Below, piece after piece: positions 1,736 through 58,370 of a stretch of DNA of 64,000 nucleotides. Numbering within the stretch: position 1 is the first letter of the stretch; every line of letters begins with the position of its first letter. The position numbers were made by a program, and so were the translations under genes. Origin of the DNA: Flavobacteriales bacterium (GTDB lineage: Bacteria; Bacteroidota; Bacteroidia; Flavobacteriales_D; Crocinitomicaceae); the NCBI GenBank assembly GCA_009885545.1, contig VFKM01000012.1, forward strand, positions 23,667-87,666, written 5' to 3'. The notes beneath the pieces are model-generated. The model was given only the letters and a program-made list of their open reading frames with translations. It was not told the DNA's origin and did no database searches.

Positions 1736-2206
1736 TCAGAAGGAGTGTTGTTCCTCTTTGACTGCCTTCAATAGATTATTGATTTGCTCAGTAGTTGCCG
1801 ATAGAAGCCTACCAGCTATATTGATAAAACCAGACTCTAACATGGCTTTCAGACAATCGTACCGATAGCCACAAGAATCTTCCCCATCATCATAGAATCC
1901 AGTGTCAACAAGAATCCTTCCATCAGGAAGCCTTAACATAAAGAAGGTTCCTTCTTTCAGTCTTTGAGTAGCAATTTGATAAGGACCAAATGTCTTAAAC
2001 TCTATTCCTGTAGGAATGTGCAAGTCAAAAGATGGAAATTCGATAATATCAATTCTCTTGCCAGAATCTGTTTCTTTTGTCTCAAGATATAACCATGTTT
2101 TGTATGTATATACCTTGTATGTTACAAAGGATTCTTTGGATTCCTCTCTGATCCAAAAGTGCCCACCATTGTCATCAAAACCAGCACTACTATAACAATA
2201 GCTCAT
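1736..2206 (-). CDS. hypothetical protein (156 aa)
   Basis: ORF track. ATG lies 5 nt after the -10 of promoter 2212-2240. Confidence 0.7.
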   Translation of the reverse strand: MSYCYSSAGFDDNGGHFWIREESKESFVTYKVYTYKTWLYLETKETDSGKRIDIIEFPSFDLHIPTGIEFKTFGPYQIATQRLKEGTFFMLRLPDGRILVDTGFYDDGEDSCGYRYDCLKAMLESGFINIAGRLLSATTEQINNLLKAVKEEQHSF

Positions 2207-2929: not shown

Positions 2930-3020
2930 TAATTTAATTATTGACAGCTCTTCTTTTGTAGGCCATACAAAAATCGAATTTGTACCTGGAGCTTATAAGG
3001 CCCCTGCTCTTACCAATGAG

Positions 3021-3407
3021 CTAATGGCCCAAACTATCAAGAATCTCGTGTTGTTCAGCATGACAATTACAACACAATAATTGGCACTTATCAAGTTCTT
3101 TTTTCACACTATTAAAGTTTCTTGTCAAAAAACCAGAAATCGTAAATTCTTTTTCTAAAGGATTCAAATGGTGAAACACTAAAGCTTTTGGTGATTTATT
3201 GTAGCCACATATTTCACATTTTCCACCTTTATATTCTAGGAATTTTAATTTTGCTGCTCGCCTAGCATGACGATTCATACAAACTTGACAGCAATCAATT
3301 CTATCATTTTTGTGCTTATAAACAAACTGTTTTTTACAAAAATTACAATTTGTTAAAGTTCCAAGTTTTGAAGTTCCAGTTTTTCCGAATTTCAGTCCAC
3401 AAATCAT
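3021..3407 (-). CDS. HNH homing endonuclease
   Basis: Has CxxC pairs plus the HNH core FHHLNP...N...CCNCHAEQH. Confidence 0.85.
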   Translation of the reverse strand: MICGLKFGKTGTSKLGTLTNCNFCKKQFVYKHKNDRIDCCQVCMNRHARRAAKLKFLEYKGGKCEICGYNKSPKALVFHHLNPLEKEFTISGFLTRNFNSVKKELDKCQLLCCNCHAEQHEILDSLGH

Positions 3408-3702: not shown

Positions 3703-4015
3703 TGAATTCCTTGATATATTCGGACGAAGTGACATCTGTATCATACCTAGCAAAATTGTACAAAGCAAAACAATTTTTGCTAGTTTTACCTCCAAACAAA
3801 CTCAAATAATGAGAATGATTTTTTAACAAATCATGCTTTGGATTCTCTTCAACAAGAATACGGATTTCTTTTCGGTATTTATCCGTAGTATCAACTGCAT
3901 CCTGCAAGTACCCAGGAAGCGACTCTGAAGAATACTTGTCTTCAATAACTTTTGAATAATCCTCGATTACAGAATAAGCATCAAGAGCCAAGATTAGCAG
4001 TTCGCCTTTATTCAT
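3680..4015 (-). CDS. hypothetical protein (111 aa)
   Basis: ORF track. Lies 4 nt after the stop of 4020..4316, suggesting an operon. Confidence 0.65.
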   Translation of the reverse strand: MNKGELLILALDAYSVIEDYSKVIEDKYSSESLPGYLQDAVDTTDKYRKEIRILVEENPKHDLLKNHSHYLSLFGGKTSKNCFALYNFARYDTDVTSSEYIKEFIDNQLRT

Positions 4016-4351: not shown

Positions 4352-4466
4352 CTGATTTGAATGCTTCGACCAGCATCTGAGGTCTTATGGCTTTTTTATA
4401 GTTTATGCCATGACTTGAGCTAGCCTCGTTGGCTACTAAATTCAAATCAGTTGATATTCAAGAATC
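4336..4466. repeat. 27-bp perfect inverted repeat containing the promoter -35 region
   Basis: Arm 4336-4362 is the exact reverse complement of arm 4440-4466, with a 77-nt spacer. The mirrored plus-strand copy has TTGATA 4451-4456 but only a poor -10 (CAGGAC). Confidence 0.9.
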
Positions 4467-5271
4467 AACAATGCAGGACTCTTACGCGATCCTGCTTACG
4501 CTAGCAACCACTAGGACAATTTCCATCCTTTCCTCTGTTGGTTGTCAAAGGAACCTATCTCGTGGAATATAGACGATCAACAGCCACAAGAGGAATCATG
4601 CTCTGTTTCAAGTCTTAGCATGGCCAGAGGTACATATACTTGACTCTACAATATTCTAGTATTGCCCAAGCAAATAGCGTGATCTTCAGGGCTTTGGTTT
4701 AGCCAGCAGCACCGCCACCAAAAGGGGCCTGATTCTTTGGTCGCATGAATATCAGGAATCATCATGCGATCTTTACATTCTGATTGATTTTCTAATTATT
4801 GACTATATTGCAACTGGCCACGTTATAGTAATTTTGATCATCAGAAGCCAAATCTGTGTGGTTCGCCAGCAATCCTCCACCACAAGGGCGCAGTTTTAGT
4901 CGGATCACATGAAAGGAGTCTGCCTATCGCATCCATGTGATTTAACATTCTATCAGAATGATGTTGCACGATTTTCCCTAATGACTGGCCTTGACAGGAA
5001 AAAGATACAACCTGACAGAAGTCCTAGAGGCACCTTACCGATGCCCCATATAGGCGAGCCACACCTATTTGCCGCAGAAATCTCGCTTCCAATTCTTGCA
5101 TGGTGCGATTGAGACACTCAATCACTAGCAAGAACCATTCTGCCGCCCTGTAAAACACAATCAATTTATAAAAAACTCAATTATTTAGTGTTAGAGGTCT
5201 TAGGGGCCAGCACGAATTGGATTTGACATTTTTTATTATTCCTTTTTTGCTATCGCCCATCTGACTTACTG

Positions 5272-5300
5272 ATCTTACTCTATCCTGAACTGATTATCAA
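5272..5300 (-). promoter_or_regulatory. sigma70-like promoter facing an ORF-poor region
   Basis: -35 TTGATA 5295-5300, N17, -10 TAAGAT 5272-5277, followed by CAGTAAGTCAG. No ORF of 60 aa or more lies downstream on the minus strand until 4316. Confidence 0.6.
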
Positions 5301-5324
5301 CTGATTGATTTGGCATCCTATTTG

Positions 5325-5405
5325 CTAGGCAAGAGTTGCCGCCAGAACAGTTCCGACTCCATACCAAGACGCGAAGGCGATTGATAGATAAAACATTGCT
5401 ACCAT
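5325..5405 (-). CDS. hydrophobic micropeptide (26 aa, MVAMFYLSIAFASWYGVGTVLAATLA)
   Basis: Below the ORF-track cutoff. An AAGGAG SD lies 6 nt upstream, and the gene starts 22 nt after the stop of 5428..5508. Confidence 0.35.
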   Translation of the reverse strand: MVAMFYLSIAFASWYGVGTVLAATLA

Positions 5406-5427
5406 GTTTGACTCCTTTTCATCAGAA

Positions 5428-5508
5428 CTATACGAGAGCGATCTTTGCAACTGCAAAGAACAGAGTAACAAATGCCGATGAGATCCACATACTTGCGAAA
5501 ATATCCAT
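5428..5508 (-). CDS. hydrophobic micropeptide (26 aa, MDIFASMWISSAFVTLFFAVAKIALV)
   Basis: Promoter 5533-5561 is followed by a 24-nt leader with an AAGGAG SD. Confidence 0.4.
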   Translation of the reverse strand: MDIFASMWISSAFVTLFFAVAKIALV

Positions 5509-5532
5509 TTTGCGTCTCCTTATCTGTGAGTG

Positions 5533-5561
5533 ATCTTACAGGAACCAAGAAGGAATATCAA
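5533..5561 (-). promoter_or_regulatory. sigma70-like promoter, leadered
   Basis: -35 TTGATA 5556-5561, N17, -10 TAAGAT 5533-5538. Confidence 0.7.
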
Positions 5562-5573
5562 GTGAATTATTTG

Positions 5574-5643
5574 CCTCCCATACAGGAGTTGAACCTGTCG
5601 TGGCTGGTTTAGAAGACCTGCCTGTGCATCCGGCACATGGGAG
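5574..5643 (-). ncRNA. tRNA-like RNA (possible tRNA-Arg UCU with non-canonical D-arm)
   Basis: - Acceptor stem is 7 bp (CTCCCAT/ATGGGAG).
- T-arm is ACAGG-TTCAACT-CCTGT.
- Anticodon loop is CTTCTAA on a 5-bp stem with one A.A mismatch.
- Variable loop is 5 nt.
- The D region is 3 nt short (GTGC-CGGAT-GCAC).
- No encoded CCA.
- Own promoter lies about 46 nt upstream. Confidence 0.4.
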
Positions 5644-5689
5644 TTAAAGAAAGTTATTCTAAACCACAGCATTTATGGTTTATTTCCCA

Positions 5690-5718
5690 ACTATACTTTA
5701 TTGTTCCTGTGATATCAA
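5690..5718 (-). promoter_or_regulatory. sigma70-like promoter upstream of the tRNA-like gene
   Basis: -35 TTGATA 5713-5718, N17, -10 TATAGT 5690-5695. Confidence 0.65.
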
Positions 5719-5730
5719 GTAAATATTCTA

Positions 5731-5841
5731 TTACAGTCCAACAATTGTATAAACAGCCATTGTTCCTGTTCCAATCGCAATTGCTGCAACAGAACAGAAG
5801 AACAAAAACAACAAAAAACTGACTGCTGCTGGTCCGGTCAT
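5731..5841 (-). CDS. hydrophobic micropeptide (36 aa, MTGPAAVSFLLFLFFCSVAAIAIGTGTMAVYTIVGL)
   Basis: Below the track cutoff. ATG lies 6 nt after the -10 of promoter 5848-5876. Confidence 0.4.
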   Translation of the reverse strand: MTGPAAVSFLLFLFFCSVAAIAIGTGTMAVYTIVGL

Positions 5842-5847
5842 GTATTC

Positions 5848-5876
5848 ACTATTACATAACTAGATACCAATATCAA
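5848..5876 (-). promoter_or_regulatory. sigma70-like promoter, leaderless configuration
   Basis: -35 TTGATA 5871-5876, N17, -10 AATAGT 5848-5853 (or TAATAG at N16), N6, ATG 5839-5841. Confidence 0.55.
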
Positions 5877-6014
5877 TTGAATTGTTGACGACTCCTAATA
5901 TCCATCTATTTGTTTTAACATTGCACTGGAGCCCGTTTAAGCCCCGCAAACTCTCCAGATGGACCAGAGCACCAACAAACAATTTGGAAGTCTTGGCGGG
6001 TCTCCTGGTGATTC

Positions 6015-6830
6015 CTAAATGGCATCTTTGAGGACAGGTGCCGCACCATCAAACAAACAATCAATGATATTTGCAATGGTTGACAACTGAGGAACCTGTA
6101 TATTACTGATTCTGGAACGCTCAACAATCAATTCAGGATTCTTCCTGGCATTGTGCCCTAAAGGCAAGGTTTCAATTTCTTCTTTAGAAAAAAGAGTTGA
6201 AACCTTAACTCTTTGGAAGTAAGAGCCTCGTTTGAATGATACAGGATAATCATTCCAATCAATCCCTGCCTCCAAAAGCATCTTACTCTTCAGTTGTTCA
6301 CCATTTAAATCCTGTAATGACCTATGAGAAAACAGTGATCTTGCTGCCATCTGAATAGAATTTTTAGAGGCATCAAGCTCCCTCCAAATGAGGGTGTTAC
6401 AAGCCTCCATTTTAGAAGGCACGTTCCATGCCCTACAATCAAATGTAGGAAACCTGTTGATTCTTTCTGGAAAGAACTCAGGAAGCCTTGAATTAAAATA
6501 CACAGAGGCATCAGCGGCTAGTGAAGAACAGATTTTCTGGACTCTTCCACCAAAATAGGATTGAGACTCTGGATTACAATGTAAAATCAAAGAAATTTCA
6601 TCTGATTGAGTGTATCCAATAATAGCATTGGATACTTTAACAAGTTGCAAGGTAGTTTCCTTCATCAAATTTTGCATTTTGACATCAAAAGGACGATCCA
6701 TTCCTTTTGTAAAAGAACTAAATCCTCTCCCATCTAGACGAATGCAAATTGGCAAGGTTTGGTCAAGGAGTCTGTGGGCCTCAACTCCTTCTAGTTCCTT
6801 CATTCTATCACCAAGAGCGTCTTTGTCCAT
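6015..6830 (-). CDS. Thg1-like protein (tRNA-His guanylyltransferase family, 3'-5' nucleotidyltransferase)
   Basis: Collinear Thg1 motifs: CIRLDGRGFSSF (cf. VRLDGRNFHRF), GYTQSDEISLIL (cf. AYGQSDEYSF) and FDCRAW...IWRELDASKNS (cf. FDGRV...WRQADCHINN). Confidence 0.9.
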   Translation of the reverse strand: MDKDALGDRMKELEGVEAHRLLDQTLPICIRLDGRGFSSFTKGMDRPFDVKMQNLMKETTLQLVKVSNAIIGYTQSDEISLILHCNPESQSYFGGRVQKICSSLAADASVYFNSRLPEFFPERINRFPTFDCRAWNVPSKMEACNTLIWRELDASKNSIQMAARSLFSHRSLQDLNGEQLKSKMLLEAGIDWNDYPVSFKRGSYFQRVKVSTLFSKEEIETLPLGHNARKNPELIVERSRISNIQVPQLSTIANIIDCLFDGAAPVLKDAI

Positions 6831-6835
6831 GACTC

Positions 6836-6864
6836 ATTATAACAAATTTTTGAGACAAACCAAG
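6836..6864 (-). promoter_or_regulatory. extended -10 promoter, leaderless configuration
   Basis: TGT-TATAAT (6836-6844), N5, ATG 6828-6830. The -35 is weak (CTTGGT 6859-6864). Confidence 0.55.
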
Positions 6865-6876
6865 AGAATTCTTGAA

Positions 6877-7047
6877 CTATTCTGTCATCTCTTGGAGCCT
6901 ACTTGCTGCCTCCTCTTCGCTACACCATGTTGAATAACAAAAGCCAGATTCACATCCAAATACTCCCCAACATTCTGTTTGAGTATCAAAATCAACTTCA
7001 AAAGAGAAATCTTTGATCTCGCCCCGGAGTCTGTATTGTGTTTCCAT
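6877..7047 (-). CDS. hypothetical Cys-rich protein (56 aa)
   Basis: Below the track cutoff. ATG 7045-7047 lies 7 nt after the -10 of promoter 7055-7083. Confidence 0.5.
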   Translation of the reverse strand: METQYRLRGEIKDFSFEVDFDTQTECWGVFGCESGFCYSTWCSEEEAASRLQEMTE

Positions 7048-7054
7048 GAGTCAG

Positions 7055-7083
7055 ACTATATCAGTTCAAAGAGGGAATATCAA
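7055..7083 (-). promoter_or_regulatory. sigma70-like promoter, leaderless configuration
   Basis: -35 TTGATA 7078-7083, N17, -10 TATAGT 7055-7060, N7, ATG. Confidence 0.7.
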
Positions 7084-7107
7084 TGAATTATCGGTGCTTT
7101 ATGAGTT

Positions 7108-9407: not shown

Positions 9408-9659
9408 TTATGATACTCCATTTGAAAAATGGAGTTCAATCATCTTCCTACAGAATTCCTCGAGTGCTCCATCTTGAAAATAGAAATTATTGTCAGTTGC
9501 ATCCACAAATCTTCCAAGATAGGATGCAGCTTCCTTGCCATGTAGATATTCACAAAGCTCATAACAGGCTTCATAGACTTCTGATTGAACTCCCTCTTCG
9601 TTCGCTAGTGCAGCCAGAAGATGTTGAAATACTGACTCAAGTGCTGCTCGGTTCTTCAT
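9408..9659 (-). CDS. hypothetical protein (83 aa)
   Basis: ORF track. ATG lies 7 nt after the -10. Confidence 0.65.
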   Translation of the reverse strand: MKNRAALESVFQHLLAALANEEGVQSEVYEACYELCEYLHGKEAASYLGRFVDATDNNFYFQDGALEEFCRKMIELHFSNGVS

Positions 9660-9666
9660 GTGATTG

Positions 9667-9695
9667 ATCCTATCAGGTTATTGGGCGATTATCAA
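9667..9695 (-). promoter_or_regulatory. sigma70-like promoter, leaderless configuration
   Basis: -35 TTGATA 9690-9695, N17, -10 TAGGAT 9667-9672, N7, ATG 9657-9659. Confidence 0.75.
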
Positions 9696-9937
9696 TCAAT
9701 TTGCGATGATTCTTTTAGAATGAGAGCCTCAGAATAAACATTCTGAAATTCTATTCCAAGCTCATCCGACATAAGCATCATATTTGCAAGGAAATTCGCC
9801 ATGGAATCTCCTATGAATGCATTTTCCATACCCTCTTCTCGCACAAATGAATCCATGTGCTTTGCTGCGGATTTAACAAAATCCATTGCACCAGGGTAAG
9901 AAGGTTGTTCAGATGCTAGTTTGGCAAACTTATTCAT
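9692..9937 (-). CDS. small helical protein, MazG-like helix motif (81 aa)
   Basis: Motif MMLMSDELGIEFQ. Overlaps the upstream gene by 8 nt. Confidence 0.6.
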   Translation of the reverse strand: MNKFAKLASEQPSYPGAMDFVKSAAKHMDSFVREEGMENAFIGDSMANFLANMMLMSDELGIEFQNVYSEALILKESSQID

Positions 9938-10127
9938 TTTCTAATTCTTTCTCCGTATAGAAAACTTCTTTGGCATCTTCTAGTCGATCATCAATGTTGA
10001 TTTGCAACTTATGTGCCAAATGAAGACAATCTGTCAGGATGTCTCTCAAGGCGAACATATCATCATATGAGCAACCATTATCTAATTGGTTGCGCAAATA
10101 CATCTGAAACTCCTTCGACATTGACAT
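9930..10127 (-). CDS. small helical protein, MazG-like helix motif (65 aa)
   Basis: Motif DCLHLAHKLQINID. Start set at ATG 10125-10127, 8 nt after AAGAAAGG; ATG 10148 is an alternative. Confidence 0.5.
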   Translation of the reverse strand: MSMSKEFQMYLRNQLDNGCSYDDMFALRDILTDCLHLAHKLQINIDDRLEDAKEVFYTEKELENE

Positions 10128-10150
10128 TTCAATAGCCTTTCTTACCATGA

Positions 10151-10179
10151 CAAATATCACATTACAGTTTGATTATCAA
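10151..10179 (-). promoter_or_regulatory. sigma70-like promoter (weak -10)
   Basis: -35 TTGATA 10174-10179, N17, -10 TATTTG 10151-10156. Confidence 0.45.
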
Positions 10180-10185
10180 GTAAAT

Positions 10186-10488
10186 TCATTCTGTTTCTTG
10201 CTTCAACCCTATTAAACAACAATCATGTCTTGGAATGTGGCCATATTCATCACAAGATCTAGTCTCATCACCGAATAGAAAACTAGGATCAGAGCCTTGA
10301 GCATACAGAAGATCGCTCATTTCTTTTTTCGTCACTTCCATTGAGCCATCTGTAGTAACAACTCCAGAACAGTGCCCTTCTGTAATTTCATAATTGATCT
10401 CTTCTAATCCCATTCCATCAGCCTGTAAAGGCTCATCAGAAAGAACTTCAATTGTAAAAACTGTGCGATAAAATTTGTTGTTTTCCAT
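10186..10488 (-). CDS. hypothetical protein (100 aa)
   Basis: ORF track. Has an AAGGAGA SD, and its leader contains a GTCAACAG box. Confidence 0.65.
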   Translation of the reverse strand: MENNKFYRTVFTIEVLSDEPLQADGMGLEEINYEITEGHCSGVVTTDGSMEVTKKEMSDLLYAQGSDPSFLFGDETRSCDEYGHIPRHDCCLIGLKQETE

Positions 10489-10542
10489 TTTGTCTCCTTA
10501 TCATTTGAGCGGACTGTTGACCCCTGCACAATCCTAAAAACA

Positions 10543-10725
10543 CTATCTACGCACCGCATACATGATTTTTTCACAAACAGGACAAATTACATTTTCTCTT
10601 GTATCTCGCTGGTCAGGTGATGTCACAAGTTCACCTGCTTTCGCCTGTGCAGTTGTGCCACAATTATAACATTGAAGATAAACAATTATATCTTCTGGTT
10701 TTGTGCCTCTGTGAATAATTTCCAT
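10543..10725 (-). CDS. zinc-ribbon protein (60 aa)
   Basis: Contains CYNC...CPVC. Confidence 0.6.
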   Translation of the reverse strand: MEIIHRGTKPEDIIVYLQCYNCGTTAQAKAGELVTSPDQRDTRENVICPVCEKIMYAVRR

Positions 10726-10734
10726 TTTACTCTT

Positions 10735-10932
10735 TCAATCCCAACAGTCCATCTCTCTGTCATCAATCTGATCCTCGGACCATTCAGAAATAAGGTTGCG
10801 TTCGTCATTGACGGCACCACCGCGAGGAATCCTAGAATCCTTCATAGGGCCTCCCTTGCAGCTAAGAATAGCTGAAAGAGTTTGAGCCCACCGCATTGCC
10901 TTAACTGAAGCCCTGAGAGTTGAGTTCTTCAT
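10735..10932 (-). CDS. hypothetical protein (65 aa)
   Basis: ORF track. ATG lies 7 nt after the -10. Confidence 0.55.
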   Translation of the reverse strand: MKNSTLRASVKAMRWAQTLSAILSCKGGPMKDSRIPRGGAVNDERNLISEWSEDQIDDREMDCWD

Positions 10933-11640: not shown

Positions 11641-12399
11641 TCAGTTGCTCTCGCTAGCGTCTTCTACATCCTGAGCAGCATACTTCGCCAGGAGATCAGC
11701 AATGCTGCGAGTCTCTCCTTCTCCCTCTTCGCTCACAGGAGCCTCTGTAGCGGGCTCTGATGCCTCTACCTCAACAGAATCCATCGAAACCTCTAGAGCC
11801 TCCAGAACAGCCTCCTGTGCAATCTCAGGTGCCTCTACAGCGGGTTCTGATGGCTCCATCTCTGCAACTGTCTGATCGGATGGCTCCTCGGTCACTTCGA
11901 CGACATCGGACTCCATTGCAGCCTCTACCACCGCTGCGGCAGGAACCGGAGGGCCTTCGACCCTCGTTGGAGAAACAGCCTTGACTGCCTTGCGAGCAAC
12001 CTTATCTGCCTCCTTCTTCGCAGCAATCTCCGCTACCTCTGCCTCAGTGCGAGGCTTGATTCCGCGGGTTCCTACGGGAACCGGCGTAGCCGATGGCTGA
12101 AAGAAGACCTCCTCTCCGAATGCCTGGAGAAGCTCCATGGCTCCGACCTTCAAGGGTTCCTTACCCTCTCCTGCATTGAGGGTAAGGATCGTGCGGCCAG
12201 TGCGCCCTCGGTGAGCAAACCGAGACATCACTACGAAGGTCTTGGTCTTGCCGCTCTTGGAAACCCGAATGCGAGTTCCCTCAGTTGCGTTGCGAACAAA
12301 AGTTGCCATATTGGCGAGAAGATCAGCGTTCATTTCGGTTCCCTTTCCTACGTTGACAGTTGCGGTTGACTTGACTTCAGATGCGTTCTTGTTTGCCAT
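11641..12399 (-). CDS. GC-rich protein with a G(R/K)xG-loop beta domain and a long acidic Pro/Glu/Ala/Val tail (252 aa)
   Basis: ORF track. One 60-nt line sampled by hand gives 55% GC. The N-terminal segment FVVMSRFAHRGRTGRTILTL is paralogous to 34152..34595. Confidence 0.75.
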   Translation of the reverse strand: MANKNASEVKSTATVNVGKGTEMNADLLANMATFVRNATEGTRIRVSKSGKTKTFVVMSRFAHRGRTGRTILTLNAGEGKEPLKVGAMELLQAFGEEVFFQPSATPVPVGTRGIKPRTEAEVAEIAAKKEADKVARKAVKAVSPTRVEGPPVPAAAVVEAAMESDVVEVTEEPSDQTVAEMEPSEPAVEAPEIAQEAVLEALEVSMDSVEVEASEPATEAPVSEEGEGETRSIADLLAKYAAQDVEDASESN

Positions 12400-37208: not shown

Positions 37209-38402
37209 ATGTTACTAGTTCAAGAATATCTAAGGGACCATTCTCTCGAAGAGCTTGTTACAGATCATGGAGTGGAAGCTCGTGTATTTGGGCATAAAGC
37301 TTCATTCAATTATAACCAAATAGAGGCAAAAGATAATGATCCTATTGTTTGTGAATGTAGAGGTTTAATTTTATCTAAAGCTGATGGAACTGTGTTTTCG
37401 TCAGGAACTACTGTTGGGGATACGAAAGTATTGGCACAGCCATTTTTTAGATTTTTTAATTTCGGACAAGGAGCCGCTGCTCCTGTTGATTTTGATGATA
37501 AAAAACTTAAAATTTATGATAAGAAAGATGGAAGTCTTATCATTGTTTATTTTGATGAATTATCTGGAGACTATCCAGAAGCTTGCATTGCAACCAGATC
37601 AGTCTCAGAAGCTGATCTTCCAATGTCGGATGGAAGAACCTTCGCAGAGTTAGTAAAATCAACTATTTTGAAACAAACTGGGAAATACTGGGAAGAATTC
37701 TCAAATCTTTTAAGAAATCGTTGCTCATGGGGAGCAACAACTTGGTGTTTTGAATTATGCACTCCATATAATTCAGTGGTCGTTCAACACAATGAATCCA
37801 AAATGTTTTTGTTATACGCAATGAGCCAAGTGTTGCTTTCCGAATATCCAAAAGAAACATTGGATTCTATTGCGCTAACTTTAGGAGTGCAAACTGCTCC
37901 TTTATTGCATGAAGGTCCACTAACAATTGAAACTTGTATGGCAATTGTGAATTCAAGATCAGGAAAGGATTTTGAGGGTGTAGTAGCATGTGATTCTAAA
38001 TTCAGAAGAATCAAAATTAAGAATGCAGAATATCTTGCTCTTCACAAAATTACATCTTCACTTGTAACTTCTTGTAGAAGCATGGCAACTTTAATTCTAA
38101 ACGGATCAGAGGATGATATTCTCCCACTTCTTGCAAAGGAATTACAAAAAGATGTTTTAGATATGAAAGAACAAATTGTAACAACTTGTAAAGAGCATGA
38201 GTATTTTTTCCACAAAACATTTATACCAAATATAACAAGAAAAGATTTTGCAATTGCTTGTCAGCAAAACAAAGAGATGTCTATGGGATATATGATGGAC
38301 TGTTACACAAAAGGATATAAAAGTTTTATTGATTGGATGAGGAGCAAGAAAACTCTAGAAGGAGAATATCCAAAAGGATTATTAGATTATTGGTGTAAAT
38401 AA
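37209..38402 (+). CDS. rnlA: Rnl1-type RNA ligase (T4 gp63-like)
   Basis: 397 aa with motif I KKDGSL (T4 Rnl1 KEDGSL) and an upstream FFRFFNFGQ. Size is similar to T4 Rnl1. Confidence 0.75.
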   Translation: MLLVQEYLRDHSLEELVTDHGVEARVFGHKASFNYNQIEAKDNDPIVCECRGLILSKADGTVFSSGTTVGDTKVLAQPFFRFFNFGQGAAAPVDFDDKKLKIYDKKDGSLIIVYFDELSGDYPEACIATRSVSEADLPMSDGRTFAELVKSTILKQTGKYWEEFSNLLRNRCSWGATTWCFELCTPYNSVVVQHNESKMFLLYAMSQVLLSEYPKETLDSIALTLGVQTAPLLHEGPLTIETCMAIVNSRSGKDFEGVVACDSKFRRIKIKNAEYLALHKITSSLVTSCRSMATLILNGSEDDILPLLAKELQKDVLDMKEQIVTTCKEHEYFFHKTFIPNITRKDFAIACQQNKEMSMGYMMDCYTKGYKSFIDWMRSKKTLEGEYPKGLLDYWCK

Positions 38403-40083: not shown

Positions 40084-40383
40084 TCATTCAATTTCCTTTT
40101 GTTTCTTTGATAATTTTTTTTGATCTTTTTTATCATCTACTTGTTTTTCTGATTCTAATGATAATTCTGCTGTTGTAGTTTCAATAGAAAAAAATCCTAG
40201 CGGAGCAGGTAAAGGCAATAAACTATCTATTTCACTTTTATCAATAGCTGTTAATAAAAGATTATCGTTAAGTAATGCTTGCTCAAGATCCAGTTGCGTT
40301 AAAATCGAATTATCTTCTATCCATTGCTGAACTGTTTTTCTTCTTCTATCAAGAAATTTTCTGAATTCAAACATTTGTTTCAT
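40084..40383 (-). CDS. hypothetical protein (99 aa)
   Basis: ORF track. Overlaps the 3' end of the sigma-factor gene. Confidence 0.6.
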   Translation of the reverse strand: MKQMFEFRKFLDRRRKTVQQWIEDNSILTQLDLEQALLNDNLLLTAIDKSEIDSLLPLPAPLGFFSIETTTAELSLESEKQVDDKKDQKKLSKKQKEIE

Positions 40384-41440
40384 CTTTCATATTTAATTTT
40401 TCAAATGGTTTATAGTGGCATAATATATCTGGAAGCATATCATGAACTGATTGATTTTTTATAAGATCACAAATTTCAGATTTCGTTAAAGATGGAAGTC
40501 CTATCTCTGATAAAAATGAAATAAAAAATTTAGTATATGCTGAAACTAATACATTTCTTGCTGTCGCATGATTCATTGGCCACCCATATTGATGCATGAT
40601 TTTTGCTATTGTTCTATAATCCAATCCATCTGTCATCGTAACATATTTTCCTTTTTTAGTTGTAGAAGCATATTTTTTGGCTGTGTTTTCACTTTTTGGT
40701 AAAGAATATCTAAGGAGCAGAACATTCATTTCTCTATCATCTAACGAAGTCAAAGCAGTAGCAGCAGCTTTTTTTATTTGCCAAGAATATAACGAAGGTT
40801 CCTGATCTGGAAGAACAGTGGTGGCTTTTATAACTCTTTCATCTTGTATTAAATTACCACATTCTATACCAAGCATTGCAGTATCCAAAGATATAGAACT
40901 GTAATGAACTCCTCGCATCATTGATAAACAGTGATGCATTTTATTTGTTATTCCCAATTCATCTGCGGTGAATTCACTAATGTTGTCTGTTACAGTTTTG
41001 CCAAGTGACTTTAACTGAGTACTGCTTTTACAGAATTGATTAAGAATGTGAGAAGGAACATGCGTTAAATGCTTGTTAACTTTCAAATAATTTATAATAG
41101 ATTGTTTTATCCACCAACTTGAATAAGTTGAGAATCTAAAACCCATACTCGGCTCAAACTTGTCAATAGCCTCTAATAATCCTAACATGCCCTCTTGAAA
41201 TAAATCATCTTTATTTGACTCAGTTACTTGTTTTGAATATGATCGATCTATAATATAAGACACTAGTTTTGCATTACTGGTAGCAATTTTATTCTTTAAT
41301 ACATTGTTGCTATCTATAAGTTTTTTCTCTGGTCCTATAGAATAAATTCTACTATTAGCATATTCAATAAAAAGAGCATCTTGATTATACTCTTTATTAA
41401 TTGTTGTTTTTGTATGCTGTTTTCCTATTTCCTGTTTCAT
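40367..41440 (-). CDS. sigma-70-family RNA polymerase sigma factor (357 aa)
   Basis: - Region 2: DLFQEGMLGLLEAIDKFEPSMGFRFSTYSSWWIKQSIINYL.
- Region 4-like: LDDREMNVLLLRY ... YRTIAKIM. Confidence 0.8.
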   Translation of the reverse strand: MKQEIGKQHTKTTINKEYNQDALFIEYANSRIYSIGPEKKLIDSNNVLKNKIATSNAKLVSYIIDRSYSKQVTESNKDDLFQEGMLGLLEAIDKFEPSMGFRFSTYSSWWIKQSIINYLKVNKHLTHVPSHILNQFCKSSTQLKSLGKTVTDNISEFTADELGITNKMHHCLSMMRGVHYSSISLDTAMLGIECGNLIQDERVIKATTVLPDQEPSLYSWQIKKAAATALTSLDDREMNVLLLRYSLPKSENTAKKYASTTKKGKYVTMTDGLDYRTIAKIMHQYGWPMNHATARNVLVSAYTKFFISFLSEIGLPSLTKSEICDLIKNQSVHDMLPDILCHYKPFEKLNMKDETNV

Positions 41441-43293: not shown

Positions 43294-43617
43294 ATGTTAG
43301 AAAGAAGAAAATCATTTTCTGTTGTAGAAAAATTGATTGGAATATCAATAGTTTTGATAATATTTGCCACATTATTAGTGGCGTCAGTCGGTAAAGGAGT
43401 CGCTTTTGACTCAAGACAATCTGCAAGAAGCTGGGCATCACAAATGTATCCAAATGAAAGAACTACATCAGTAATGTGTCAAACTTTTGATACAGATGGA
43501 GATGGATATCTTTCTTGCTCAATTAGAATTAACGAATATCAACCAATCGCACTTGATTGTCCAGTTATCATGTCGTTTAATAAAGAATGCAGAATGTCAC
43601 GAACAACTAACCGATAG
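43294..43617 (+). CDS. pilin-like (class III signal-like) small secreted or membrane protein
   Basis: N terminus RRKSFSVVEKLIGISIVLIIFATLL resembles the prepilin motif (K/R)G-F(T/S)L(I/V)E plus a hydrophobic helix. Also has a DTDGDGYLSC Ca-binding-like loop. Confidence 0.45.
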   Translation: MLERRKSFSVVEKLIGISIVLIIFATLLVASVGKGVAFDSRQSARSWASQMYPNERTTSVMCQTFDTDGDGYLSCSIRINEYQPIALDCPVIMSFNKECRMSRTTNR

Positions 43618-44511
43618 AGATGAAGCATTGCTTCCCTCTAGCATTTTATCAATAATTTTGATATAATTTACTCCATAGTTGCTATTCTCCATTTGATGAA
43701 TTAAATAATTAAAACTCGAATCTTTTGGAGTAATATCATCTTTTATATCTTTACTTTGGGATGCTATGGCAGATGCTATACTAGCAACTGTATCAGTGTC
43801 GCCACCTAGTCCGATAGCTGTTTTAATGACATCAGACAATATTCCATTTGACATTATAACAGATGTTATAGCTGCCCTTACAGTAATCAAACCAAGATCA
43901 TTGGATACTTTTACTCTTTCCATCCATGGTTGATCTAATTTCAAACTGGAATCAAAATATGTTTTAATATATTCTAACATCTCATTTAAAGATGAATTTT
44001 TATATTTAAGTGCCCAACAACAAACAAGAACGCATCTAGCTGCCTCAATAGCAGTCCCTTCATGAGTAATACCTGAAACAATTTCATTGATCCTGAATAA
44101 CTCATCGAGATTATCTGTAAGATACACTAATGGTGCAATTCTCATTGCAGCACCATTTTTATCAGTTCTACCATGCTCATTAATCCTAGAAAGGAGTTCT
44201 GATCCATTTCTTACTTCCTCTAAAAGAGTTTGTAAGCCTCTACTATAACCTTTTCTTGGATCTCTTTTAAATCCGGAAACAAATCTGTTCGCAACATCTA
44301 GCTCCGTGAATACAAATGATCCCATACGAGCATCAATAACCATTTCAGCAATTATTAATGACATCTGTGTGTCATCACTATACATTCCTGGTTTAAGACC
44401 AGTATGTATAGGATGTTGATAAAATCCTAAATCATTGGGAGGAGCATTTAAACCAGATGTATATTCATGACCAACACCGATACTATCACCAATTTCAATT
44501 TGTAATAACAT
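43597..44511 (-). CDS. ADP-ribosylglycohydrolase family protein
   Basis: N-terminal GDSIGVGHEY and C-terminal GLGGDTDTVASIASAIA, both typical of the ARH family. Confidence 0.8.
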   Translation of the reverse strand: MLLQIEIGDSIGVGHEYTSGLNAPPNDLGFYQHPIHTGLKPGMYSDDTQMSLIIAEMVIDARMGSFVFTELDVANRFVSGFKRDPRKGYSRGLQTLLEEVRNGSELLSRINEHGRTDKNGAAMRIAPLVYLTDNLDELFRINEIVSGITHEGTAIEAARCVLVCCWALKYKNSSLNEMLEYIKTYFDSSLKLDQPWMERVKVSNDLGLITVRAAITSVIMSNGILSDVIKTAIGLGGDTDTVASIASAIASQSKDIKDDITPKDSSFNYLIHQMENSNYGVNYIKIIDKMLEGSNASSLSVSCS

Positions 44512-57788: not shown

Positions 57789-57840
57789 CAGCGAAACCTT
57801 ATCTTGAAATAATAAAAAACTATTGTTAACGATTATCTAT

Positions 57841-57864
57841 AGGACTGCTGGGTATCGAACCCAG
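57841..57864 (-). other. tRNA 3'-fragment-like sequence (T-arm plus 3' acceptor strand)
   Basis: The minus strand reads CTGGG-TTCGATA-CCCAG-CAGTCCT. No matching 5' acceptor strand, D-arm or anticodon arm lies upstream. Confidence 0.4.
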
Positions 57865-58370
57865 GTCTTGAAATATATTTGAAGGACATTTACGTGGCCT
57901 ATTCTAGATTAATAAATTAAACAACTTCTAGACAAATCATTTAAAGTTTCTTTTATAATCTTAATGTTTTTTATCAAAAGAATTTTAAAAACATCCAGTC
58001 CGATTGTTTTCACCTTTCACAAACTACGAACAGAAATCCATGAAAGATGTGTTCTTAACTATGCCGCAACGGCATAGGGAGCAGATGTTGCATTATCATT
58101 TGCAATTATGTTTGCTTGTTTTTTTATGTGGCCACAGCACCACAACCACGTATTCATTTCTCTTATATCCCAATCGAATCCTTTCAGCCCTAAAACTAAG
58201 TATGATACTTTCCCTCACAAATATCAACCAAATAATAATTTATCTTTACGAACAATCTTCCATGAGATTTATCATGAGAATTCAAGTGCTTGCTAGCAGG
58301 CACAAACAAAATCTCTTGCAAACCAAAAAAATATATGGCAAGGTATGTTTACCGATAAGGAAAGAAGTAA

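Follow-up and report, generated by a model that had tools for sequence, protein, structure and literature searches.

A compact tRNA, a Thg1-like gene and small open reading frames at one phage locus

The window analysed here is a stretch of 64,000 nt from contig VFKM01000012.1, and its region 5325-6864 carries, all on the minus strand, a gene for a Thg1-like protein (TLP), a tRNA-like gene with an unusual core and three small open reading frames (ORFs). On gene content, the window is DNA of an uncultivated large phage: its genes include those for a portal protein, rIIA, rIIB, a sigma factor and an Rnl1-like RNA ligase. The rIIA protein is at most 34% identical to that of any GenBank phage record, which places the window at a distance from cultured phages. 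The features of the region are listed below in the direction of transcription.

6836..6863, minus strand: TLP promoter-like site; -35 TTGGTT (6863..6858), 16-nt spacer, extended -10 TGtTATAAT (hexamer 6841..6836)
6015..6830, minus strand: TLP of the bacterial/phage type, 271 aa (Pfam PF04446, phrog_4717)
5848..5876, minus strand: promoter-like TTGATA-N17-AATAGT, ahead of the 36-aa ORF
5731..5841, minus strand: 36-aa hydrophobic micropeptide ORF MTGPAAVSFLLFLFFCSVAAIAIGTGTMAVYTIVGL, leaderless layout, GRAVY 1.80
5690..5718, minus strand: promoter-like TTGATA-N17-TATAGT, 10/12, ahead of the tRNA; predicted leader about 40 nt
5574..5643, minus strand: compact-core tRNA-Arg(UCU), 70 nt (ARAGORN, fold, family covariance model)
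5533..5561, minus strand: promoter-like TTGATA-N17-TAAGAT, ahead of the two 26-aa ORFs
5428..5508, minus strand: 26-aa hydrophobic micropeptide ORF MDIFASMWISSAFVTLFFAVAKIALV, AAGGAG 8 nt upstream
5325..5405, minus strand: 26-aa hydrophobic micropeptide ORF MVAMFYLSIAFASWYGVGTVLAATLA, AAGGAG 7 nt upstream

The window tRNA-Arg(UCU) has a compact core

ARAGORN called a tRNA-Arg(tct) at 5573..5643 on the minus strand, with the anticodon at position 31 rather than 34. The acceptor stem is fully paired (7/7) and is joined directly to the D stem, leaving an 8/9 connector of 0 nt. The D stem (GUGC/GCAC, 4 bp) closes a 5-nt loop, CGGAU, and is followed by a single linker A; the D region, taken from acceptor to anticodon stem, is 3 nt shorter than canonical. 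The anticodon stem has 7 bp with one A.A mismatch, the anticodon loop is CUUCUAA, the variable loop is ACG (3 nt), the T arm (ACAGG-UUCAACU-CCUGU) is normal and the discriminator is G. The tRNA-like gene at 5574-5643 is present as an initial annotation made from sequence alone had described it, with a perfect acceptor stem, a canonical T-arm, a CU-UCU-AA anticodon loop and a shortened D arm. Canonical traits that are kept include the 7-bp acceptor stem, the 5-bp T stem and the 7-nt UUCRANY loop, as well as an anticodon loop of 7 nt with U33 and a purine at 37. Those that are missing all concern the core: the 2-nt U8/N9 connector, a D loop of at least 7 nt, a 5-bp anticodon stem and a 4-5-nt variable loop.

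The predicted fold has a minimum free energy of -27.4 kcal/mol (z -2.5), and the RNA scores 82.6 bits against a family covariance model that includes the window tRNA itself. The Rfam tRNA model scores the RNA below its gathering threshold. Bacterial tRNA-Arg identity, by the E. coli rules, lies in A20, C35, U or G36 and A or G73. The window tRNA presents a D-loop C-G-G-A-U, an anticodon U-C-U and a discriminator G, and its D-loop A would correspond to A20. Exact 41-mer and 35-mer scans of IMG/VR and metagenomes for the window tRNA returned no match.

Selenocysteine tRNA (tRNA-Sec) is distinguished by an 8/5 or 9/4 acceptor/T split, a long variable arm and a UCA anticodon. Assignment of the window RNA to tRNA-Sec (RF01852) was rejected: it scores 21.8 bits against a gathering threshold of 47, its acceptor/T split is 7/5, its variable loop has 3 nt and its anticodon is UCU.

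The compact core defines a recurrent, covarying class

The compact-core class was defined by a 7-bp acceptor stem, a 0-nt connector, a 4-bp D stem with a 4-5-nt loop containing GGA, a 1-nt linker, a 7-bp anticodon stem, a 2-3-nt variable loop and a 5-bp T stem, together with an Arg anticodon. The linker is usually A. The window tRNA aligns with 16 others without gaps and passes a strict descriptor of this structure. A pattern scan of IMG/VR, in which only the D-loop CGGAT, its spacing to CTTCTAA and the T-loop were fixed, returned 113 loci, mostly canonical tRNA-Arg(UCU); 18 of them (16 distinct) have the exact odd layout of the window. The compact architecture is shared by at least 25 other sequences, which come from viral contigs, metagenomes and, in a few cases, metagenome-assembled genomes (MAGs).

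Among the 17 sequences aligned without gaps, 96.2% of cells are paired, and 21 of the 23 pairs, including all four of the D stem and all seven of the anticodon stem, show two-sided changes. The covariation score is 0.908, versus 0.23 for shuffles and 0.09-0.14 for slid-partner controls. The D stem takes the forms GUGC/GCAC, GUAC/GUAC, CUGC/GCAG, CUGG/CCAG, GGGC/GCCC, GCGC/GCGC and GCUU/AAGC. RNAalifold independently recovers the same fold and leaves unpaired only the often-mismatched third pair of the long stem. A metagenome scan that fixed the D hairpin and the loops, and left the acceptor and anticodon stems free, yielded 10 further loci that all adopt this fold; in each, the acceptor and T stems pair perfectly and the anticodon stem forms 5-7 of its 7 pairs. 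Applied to 1.32 Mb of loci, the strict structure descriptor picked out 25 distinct cases, and its reversed-sequence control gave no match. The initial annotation had considered the tRNA defective-looking; it instead belongs to a recurrent, covariation-supported class whose members hold the tRNA-Arg(UCU) position in many phage arrays.

Compact tRNAs occupy the tRNA-Arg position in phage tRNA arrays

Class members lie 4-10 nt from canonical tRNAs within arrays of 10-36 tRNA genes, where their usual neighbours are tRNA-Ile(UAU), Leu(UAA) and Lys(UUU). The compact member is the sole UCU tRNA seen in the fetched portion of each array. Nine distinct members encode CCA straight after the discriminator. 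When Rfam RF00005 was run on 14 loci, 92 canonical tRNAs were called and none of the 14 compact ones; the canonical neighbours score 31-73 bits, whereas the 14 tested compact tRNAs all fall below 29. This suggests that phage tRNAs are under-counted by covariance-model annotation.

As detected by the covariance model and the strict descriptor, the compact design also occurs with CCU, CCG and UCG anticodons, all specific for Arg and all with the D-loop GGA kept. A rare compact Ala(UGC) form carries G3:U70 and a D loop of UGGU or AGGU in place of GGA.

The array position, the CCA encoded in relatives, the covariation and the window copy's own instance of an over-represented promoter motif (see below) argue that the RNA is a real tRNA. 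That the RNA is a tRNA pseudogene in decay, or was called by ARAGORN by chance, might be suspected from the score under the Rfam gathering threshold, the modest fold z of -2.5 and the poor ARAGORN drawing of the D-arm. However, compensatory changes recur in every unusual helix, relatives sit in arrays and encode CCA, the gene has its own promoter and the descriptor finds nothing in reversed sequence; we regard decay or chance as extremely improbable. The non-canonical core is all that speaks for a tRNA-like regulatory or structural RNA with no decoding role. Such a role is very improbable: the RNA retains the Arg identity elements and the U36-A37-A38 context, no other UCU tRNA is seen in the fetched arrays and AGA is the dominant Arg codon. 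AGA accounts for 58.5% of the Arg codons in the window and ATA for 27.8% of the Ile codons, a usage that fits its two tRNAs, Arg-UCU and Ile-UAU. As read from these sequence features, the window RNA is most likely a functional tRNA that decodes AGA.

When 185,579 species genomes were scanned with the pattern, 17 matches were found; four of these are compact, and each of the four belongs to a tRNA array or a short MAG contig. Blastn with the window tRNA, two other members and 24 concatenated members found no near relatives in 50,697 deposited phage genomes. No description of the compact architecture in phages was found in the literature searched, where work on tRNAPyl, mitochondrial tRNA-Ser and 8/4 allo-tRNAs comes nearest, and an earlier report elsewhere is possible; a viral structured-RNA survey mentions a tRNA-Arg-overlapping motif. 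The compact-core tRNA-Arg design appears to be phage-associated and undescribed.

Several other tRNAs in the fetched loci are unusual. Compact cores with CCU and CCG (Arg), UGC (Ala) and CGU (Thr) anticodons are present in phage arrays, several of them without an ARAGORN call. Compact cores with other anticodons are located as follows (locus and positions).

L102, 1610..1678 and 1759..1827
L069, 7152..7220
L066, 1164..1232
L106, 5018..5086
L037, 658..726
L096, 241..309

L102 also contains, at 3811..3893, a tRNA-Sec-like match whose 50.8 bits exceed the gathering score. At 3986..4060 of L028 an amber-suppressor tRNA(CUA) adjoins a compact tRNA-Arg, and ARAGORN assigns a 4-nt 'ttta' anticodon to a tRNA at 12121..12195 of L001.

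The Thg1-like protein is of the bacterial type

The initial annotation had recognized a Thg1-like gene at 6015..6830, and profile comparisons confirmed it. The 271-aa product matches Pfam Thg1 (PF04446) with 107.6 bits (cut-off 29.2, E 5.5e-31) over residues 8-138, and phrog_4717, 'tRNA-His guanylyltransferase', nearly over its full length (residues 3-260, E 6.7e-76); the catalytic motifs are kept. Its closest solved structure is the Bacillus thuringiensis TLP 4KGK (4.3e-39), and eukaryotic Thg1 proteins are much weaker matches (fungal, from Candida, 7e-13; human, 2.9e-07). D33 in 'RLDGRGF' and D77-E78 in 'QSDEIS' align with identical residues of 4KGK, and D33, S76, D77 and E78 are invariant across 26 TLP homologues. 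The metal-binding carboxylates of human Thg1 are D29, D76 and E77, to which D33, D77 and E78 correspond here. Where Candida Thg1 has 'DCHINNLYN', containing the HINNLYN motif by which eukaryotic Thg1 recognizes the anticodon, the window protein has 'DASKNSI'. Both the missing HINNLYN and the closer match to bacterial TLPs assign the protein, by sequence, to the TLP subtype and not to eukaryotic Thg1.

Homologues are common in large phages. They occur in 161 GenBank phage records, mostly annotated as tRNA-His guanylyltransferase, and on at least 587 IMG/VR contigs; 3278 proteins match the window TLP at E <= 1e-20. The highest identity is 67% to any protein found and 55% to any GenBank phage record, and a single-protein scan of IMG/VR for close relatives gave no match. 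The protein resembles the bacterial-type TLPs (4KGK) and PHROG 4717 in its full-length homology and in the DG...F and QSDEIS motifs; it differs from them in the leaderless-type layout of its promoter and in its identity of no more than 67%.

In Vibrio phage D69 the TLP gene neighbours those for a CCA-adding enzyme, a nucleotidyltransferase, Rnl1 and Pnkp, and in another locus (L006) it is preceded by genes for two RNA ligases, 1.3 and 5.5 kb upstream. Of the 80 IMG/VR TLP loci, 23 have tRNA genes within 10 kb. These neighbours, RNA-repair genes and tRNAs, are consistent with a tRNA-directed repair enzyme. A survey of jumbo phages already counts Thg1 among 5'-end tRNA/RNA-repair enzymes (PMC7824862). 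The window TLP is in this sense ordinary: phage Thg1-like genes have been catalogued before, and on its own the gene adds little. By homology, the enzyme would be a bacterial-type Thg1-like 3'-5' nucleotidyltransferase that refills missing tRNA 5' nucleotides with the 3' acceptor strand as template; this activity is inferred from the sequence relationships above.

The TLP gene and the compact tRNA are not a conserved pair

The initial annotation had read the TLP beside this tRNA as a sign of tRNA 5'-end repair, or of a dedicated substrate or decoy. A functional pair of this kind, including one in which the tRNA is a client for 5'-end repair or editing, finds some encouragement in the spacing of the genes. 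The window tRNA starts 372 nt after the TLP stop; in one other locus (L164) a compact tRNA-Arg(UCG) starts 5 nt past the TLP stop codon; and in another (L019) a TLP and a compact tRNA are both present, 6.4 kb apart. Yet the closest TLP loci (67%, 62%, 55% and 51% identity) have no such tRNA, and L164 is the only one of the 80 IMG/VR TLP loci, taken with 10-kb flanks, that has a compact tRNA nearby. Conversely, none of about 27 other compact-tRNA loci has an adjacent TLP, and only L019 has a distant one. One of 176 tRNAs near 89 TLP loci is compact (about 0.6%), compared with 4 of 599 (2 distinct) by the same descriptor in control loci chosen via canonical tRNA-Arg, so there is no enrichment. 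The perfect acceptor stem of the window tRNA gives no sign of 5' editing, and the two genes are under separate promoters.

We consider a functional pair improbable. The pairing is not conserved as a module, whether judged from the closest TLP loci, from the roughly 27 compact-tRNA loci or from the frequencies of 1/176 and 2-4/599, and the idea of a dedicated substrate or decoy is without comparative support. A general role for the TLP in tRNA repair is reasonable and in keeping with the literature (PMC7824862). That the two genes are neighbours in the window is best explained by a general tendency of large phages to group tRNA genes with genes for tRNA enzymes.

The wider neighbourhood was also compared. 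Blastn of 5200..7100 against phage genomes gave a single 65% match, confined to the TLP gene, and when every window ORF was compared by tblastn with the fetched loci, the TLP and an HNH endonuclease (see below) were the only shared neighbours. Searches of the neighbouring small proteins against Pfam and PHROG were uninformative except for this endonuclease.

In the L164 locus (IMG/VR contig, 9617..10879) a tRNA-His(GUG) lies 312 nt upstream of the TLP gene, with the compact tRNA-Arg(UCG) on the other side.

Promoter-like sites are copies of an over-represented motif, about half of them with a leaderless layout

The initial annotation had placed three consensus promoters downstream of the TLP gene. 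All three are present, and rather than standing alone they are copies of an over-represented motif. With scores of 9-10 of 12, the sites at 5876..5848, 5718..5690 and 5561..5533 belong to the motif TTGATA-N17-TAnnnT, from which the 5876 site deviates with its -10 AATAGT. The window contains 26 copies versus 2.5 expected, a number reached in none of 100 shuffles. Twenty of them fall on the minus strand of the first 11.2 kb, a density of about one per 500 bp, and the motif promoters of this interval read TTGATA(A/T)TC...TGATAGGAT.

In 11 of the 21 motif promoters of the 1..11.2 kb interval an ATG lies 6-8 nt past the -10 and opens an ORF of 36-156 aa. The ATG of the 36-aa ORF at 5731..5841 is 7 nt past the -10, in agreement with the earlier description of separately promoted small genes, one of them of leaderless type. 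The TLP gene has a comparable leaderless-type layout, its ATG being 5 nt past the -10 of the predicted site. These positions suggest that many early genes, including that for the TLP, are expressed from leaderless mRNAs, and promoters 6-8 nt ahead of start codons hint that leaderless early genes are widespread in this phage.

The three micropeptide ORFs are present at the coordinates first reported, and their promoter or Shine-Dalgarno placement and hydrophobicity fit predicted coding genes. In hydrophobicity they rank within the top 1.5-3.6% of 338 small window ORFs, the 36-aa ORF at the top 1.5%. The promoter placement, the Shine-Dalgarno sequences and the hydrophobicity together make the micropeptides plausible. 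Their products would probably be small membrane proteins.

A probable working compact tRNA among independent transcription units

Taken together, these results make it probable that region 5325-6864 is a set of independent small transcription units in a densely promoted early-type region and not one functional module, comprising a bacterial-type TLP, a working compact-core tRNA-Arg(UCU) and three probable small membrane micropeptides. Several observations weigh against this interpretation. The window copy of the tRNA has an A.A mismatch in its anticodon stem and no encoded CCA. It lies below the RF00005 gathering score of 29 bits, with tRNA-Sec as its best clan match (21.8 bits, E 0.047). Members of the first alignment had been pre-filtered for pairing, and the invariance of CGGAT, CTTCTAA and the T-loop carries no evidence because the search pattern fixed them. 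Pfam Thg1C (PF14413) was not found in the TLP at E <= 0.1, although some TLP homologues have a match to it. Finally, tblastn found no micropeptide homologues in phage genomes, a search in which the low-complexity filter may mask hydrophobic matches.

On the preferred interpretation, the compact tRNA lacks the 8/9 connector as well as two tertiary layers, U8-A14 and 15-48, and two extra Watson-Crick anticodon-stem pairs and a 3-nt variable loop would replace them. A canonical tRNA would stack about 12 layers (a D stem of 4, 8-14, 15-48, 26-44 and the 5-bp anticodon stem); the compact stack of 4 + 1 + 7 would have the same number, with the D-loop GG still able to reach the T-loop. G18, G19, the arginyl-tRNA synthetase (ArgRS) identity base A20, C35, U36-A37-A38 and the T-loop are all kept. 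Maturation would proceed by RNase P and 3' nuclease cuts followed by CCA addition by the CCA-adding enzyme, after which host ArgRS would charge the tRNA for reading AGA, the dominant Arg codon of the phage.

Known tRNAs offer partial parallels. Pyrrolysine tRNA (tRNAPyl), especially that of Methanomethylophilus alvus, has a compact core, an L-shape has been shown for tRNAPyl, and the M. alvus molecule has a 0-nt connector (PMC7609411). Like the phage tRNA, tRNAPyl combines a 0-1 nt acceptor-D gap, a 4-5-nt D loop, a lengthened anticodon stem, sometimes with an unpaired base, and a 3-nt variable loop. The anticodon stem of tRNAPyl, however, has 6 bp and that of the phage tRNA 7 bp, and the Methanosarcina barkeri tRNAPyl is without G18G19 and TΨC, whereas the phage tRNA keeps G18G19 and UUCRA (PMC7609411). 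The archaeal and bacterial tRNAPyl carries CUA and is charged by PylRS, in contrast to the UCU anticodon, Arg identity and lack of PylRS in the phage. A tRNAPyl identity was accordingly rejected, since the anticodon is UCU, not CUA, and GG and UUCAA (genomic TΨC) are present; the likeness is architectural only.

Mammalian mitochondrial tRNA-Ser(UCN) (type I) shares the short connector, the small D loop with G18G19 and TΨC, the elongated anticodon stem and the 3-nt variable loop, and retains the L-shape (PMC7609411). It differs in having a 1-nt connector and a 6-bp stem in place of 0 nt and 7 bp, and Ser identity within the mitochondrial machinery rather than Arg identity within the bacterial one. 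The review of tRNAPyl and mitochondrial tRNAs from which these comparisons are drawn (PMC7609411) does not mention phages. Canonical phage tRNA-Arg(UCU), as in T4-like and other large phages, has the same anticodon loop and the same presumed role of decoding AGA in AT-rich genes, and it too is often next to tRNA-Ile(UAU), Leu(UAA) and Lys(UUU). It differs in possessing U8/N9, in its larger D loop (7-10 nt) and variable loop (4-5 nt) and in its anticodon stem of 5 bp. The 8/4 and 9/3 allo-tRNAs and the phage 8/4 tRNA-Ser/His provide a precedent for deviant tRNAs in phage clusters (Mukai et al. 2017, PMC5389517); these tRNAs alter the acceptor/T-stem split, whereas the compact phage tRNA keeps 7/5 and remodels the D, anticodon and variable core.

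If working, the compact tRNA would be a natural non-canonical core, comparable to those of tRNAPyl and mitochondrial tRNA-Ser(UCN), at work in normal bacterial translation and present in many phages. It would offer a testable case for the limits of tRNA-core reduction under RNase P, ArgRS, EF-Tu and the ribosome, and a candidate scaffold for nuclease-evading or orthogonal tRNAs. More tentatively, phages of several lineages may carry a compact tRNA-Arg family in which the 7-bp stem compensates for the lost layers, and which is perhaps kept for resistance to tRNA-directed immunity or for independence from modification; such a family would still have to serve bacterial RNase P, ArgRS, EF-Tu and ribosomes.

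A doubtful refinement of the preferred interpretation sees the compact shape as counter-defence: the phage would supply an AGA decoder whose altered core and anticodon arm let it escape host tRNA nucleases or make it independent of host modification enzymes, with the TLP, the Rnl1-like ligase and the tmRNA (transfer-messenger RNA) as further arms of the same strategy against attack on tRNAs. The class was found almost exclusively in viral contigs and phage-like arrays, with the four compact pattern matches in 185,579 species genomes noted above, and is mostly specific for Arg; tRNA-Arg is a known toxin target, as for colicin D (cited in PMC7824862). Phage tRNA variants that escape PARIS are documented (PMC11464382), and the compact design, as read from its sequence, is without U8 and most D-loop and variable-loop modification sites. 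Against this, there is no linked defence system or nuclease, and the compactness is equally explicable as neutral drift tolerated by ArgRS.

Other translation, RNA-repair and neighbouring features of the window

Further features were located outside the 5325-6864 region.

2958..3030, minus strand: canonical tRNA-Ile(UAU), 63.6 bits
3021..3407, minus strand: HNH endonuclease gene (phrog_2255, 3.4e-26)
37209..38402, plus strand: Rnl1-like RNA ligase (phrog_562, 1e-39)
40367..41440, minus strand: sigma factor
43597..44511, minus strand: ADP-ribosylglycohydrolase
57837..58191, minus strand: phage-encoded tmRNA (Rfam RF00023, 88.1 bits, E 7.5e-33)

The ligase together with the TLP, the tmRNA and the two tRNAs indicates that the phage carries a kit for translation and RNA repair, of which the TLP would be one piece. 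The tmRNA at 57837..58191 (minus strand) received no ARAGORN call; its tag, as read off the alignment, would be ANDNATSAPYAVAA.

Directly downstream of the motif promoter at 5300..5272, about 870 nt on the minus strand (4400..5270) are without a sizeable ORF. This ORF-poor segment has no match in Rfam and none by blastn in phages, and its part 4990..5265 folds with a z-score of only -2.4. The segment may be a non-coding RNA or decayed genes.

The 5' end of the tRNA-Ile(UAU) and the stop region of the HNH gene overlap by 10 nt. Homologues of the HNH endonuclease are present in further tRNA-bearing phage loci (L001, L026, L071 and others), and in L001 the homologue immediately adjoins a tRNA.

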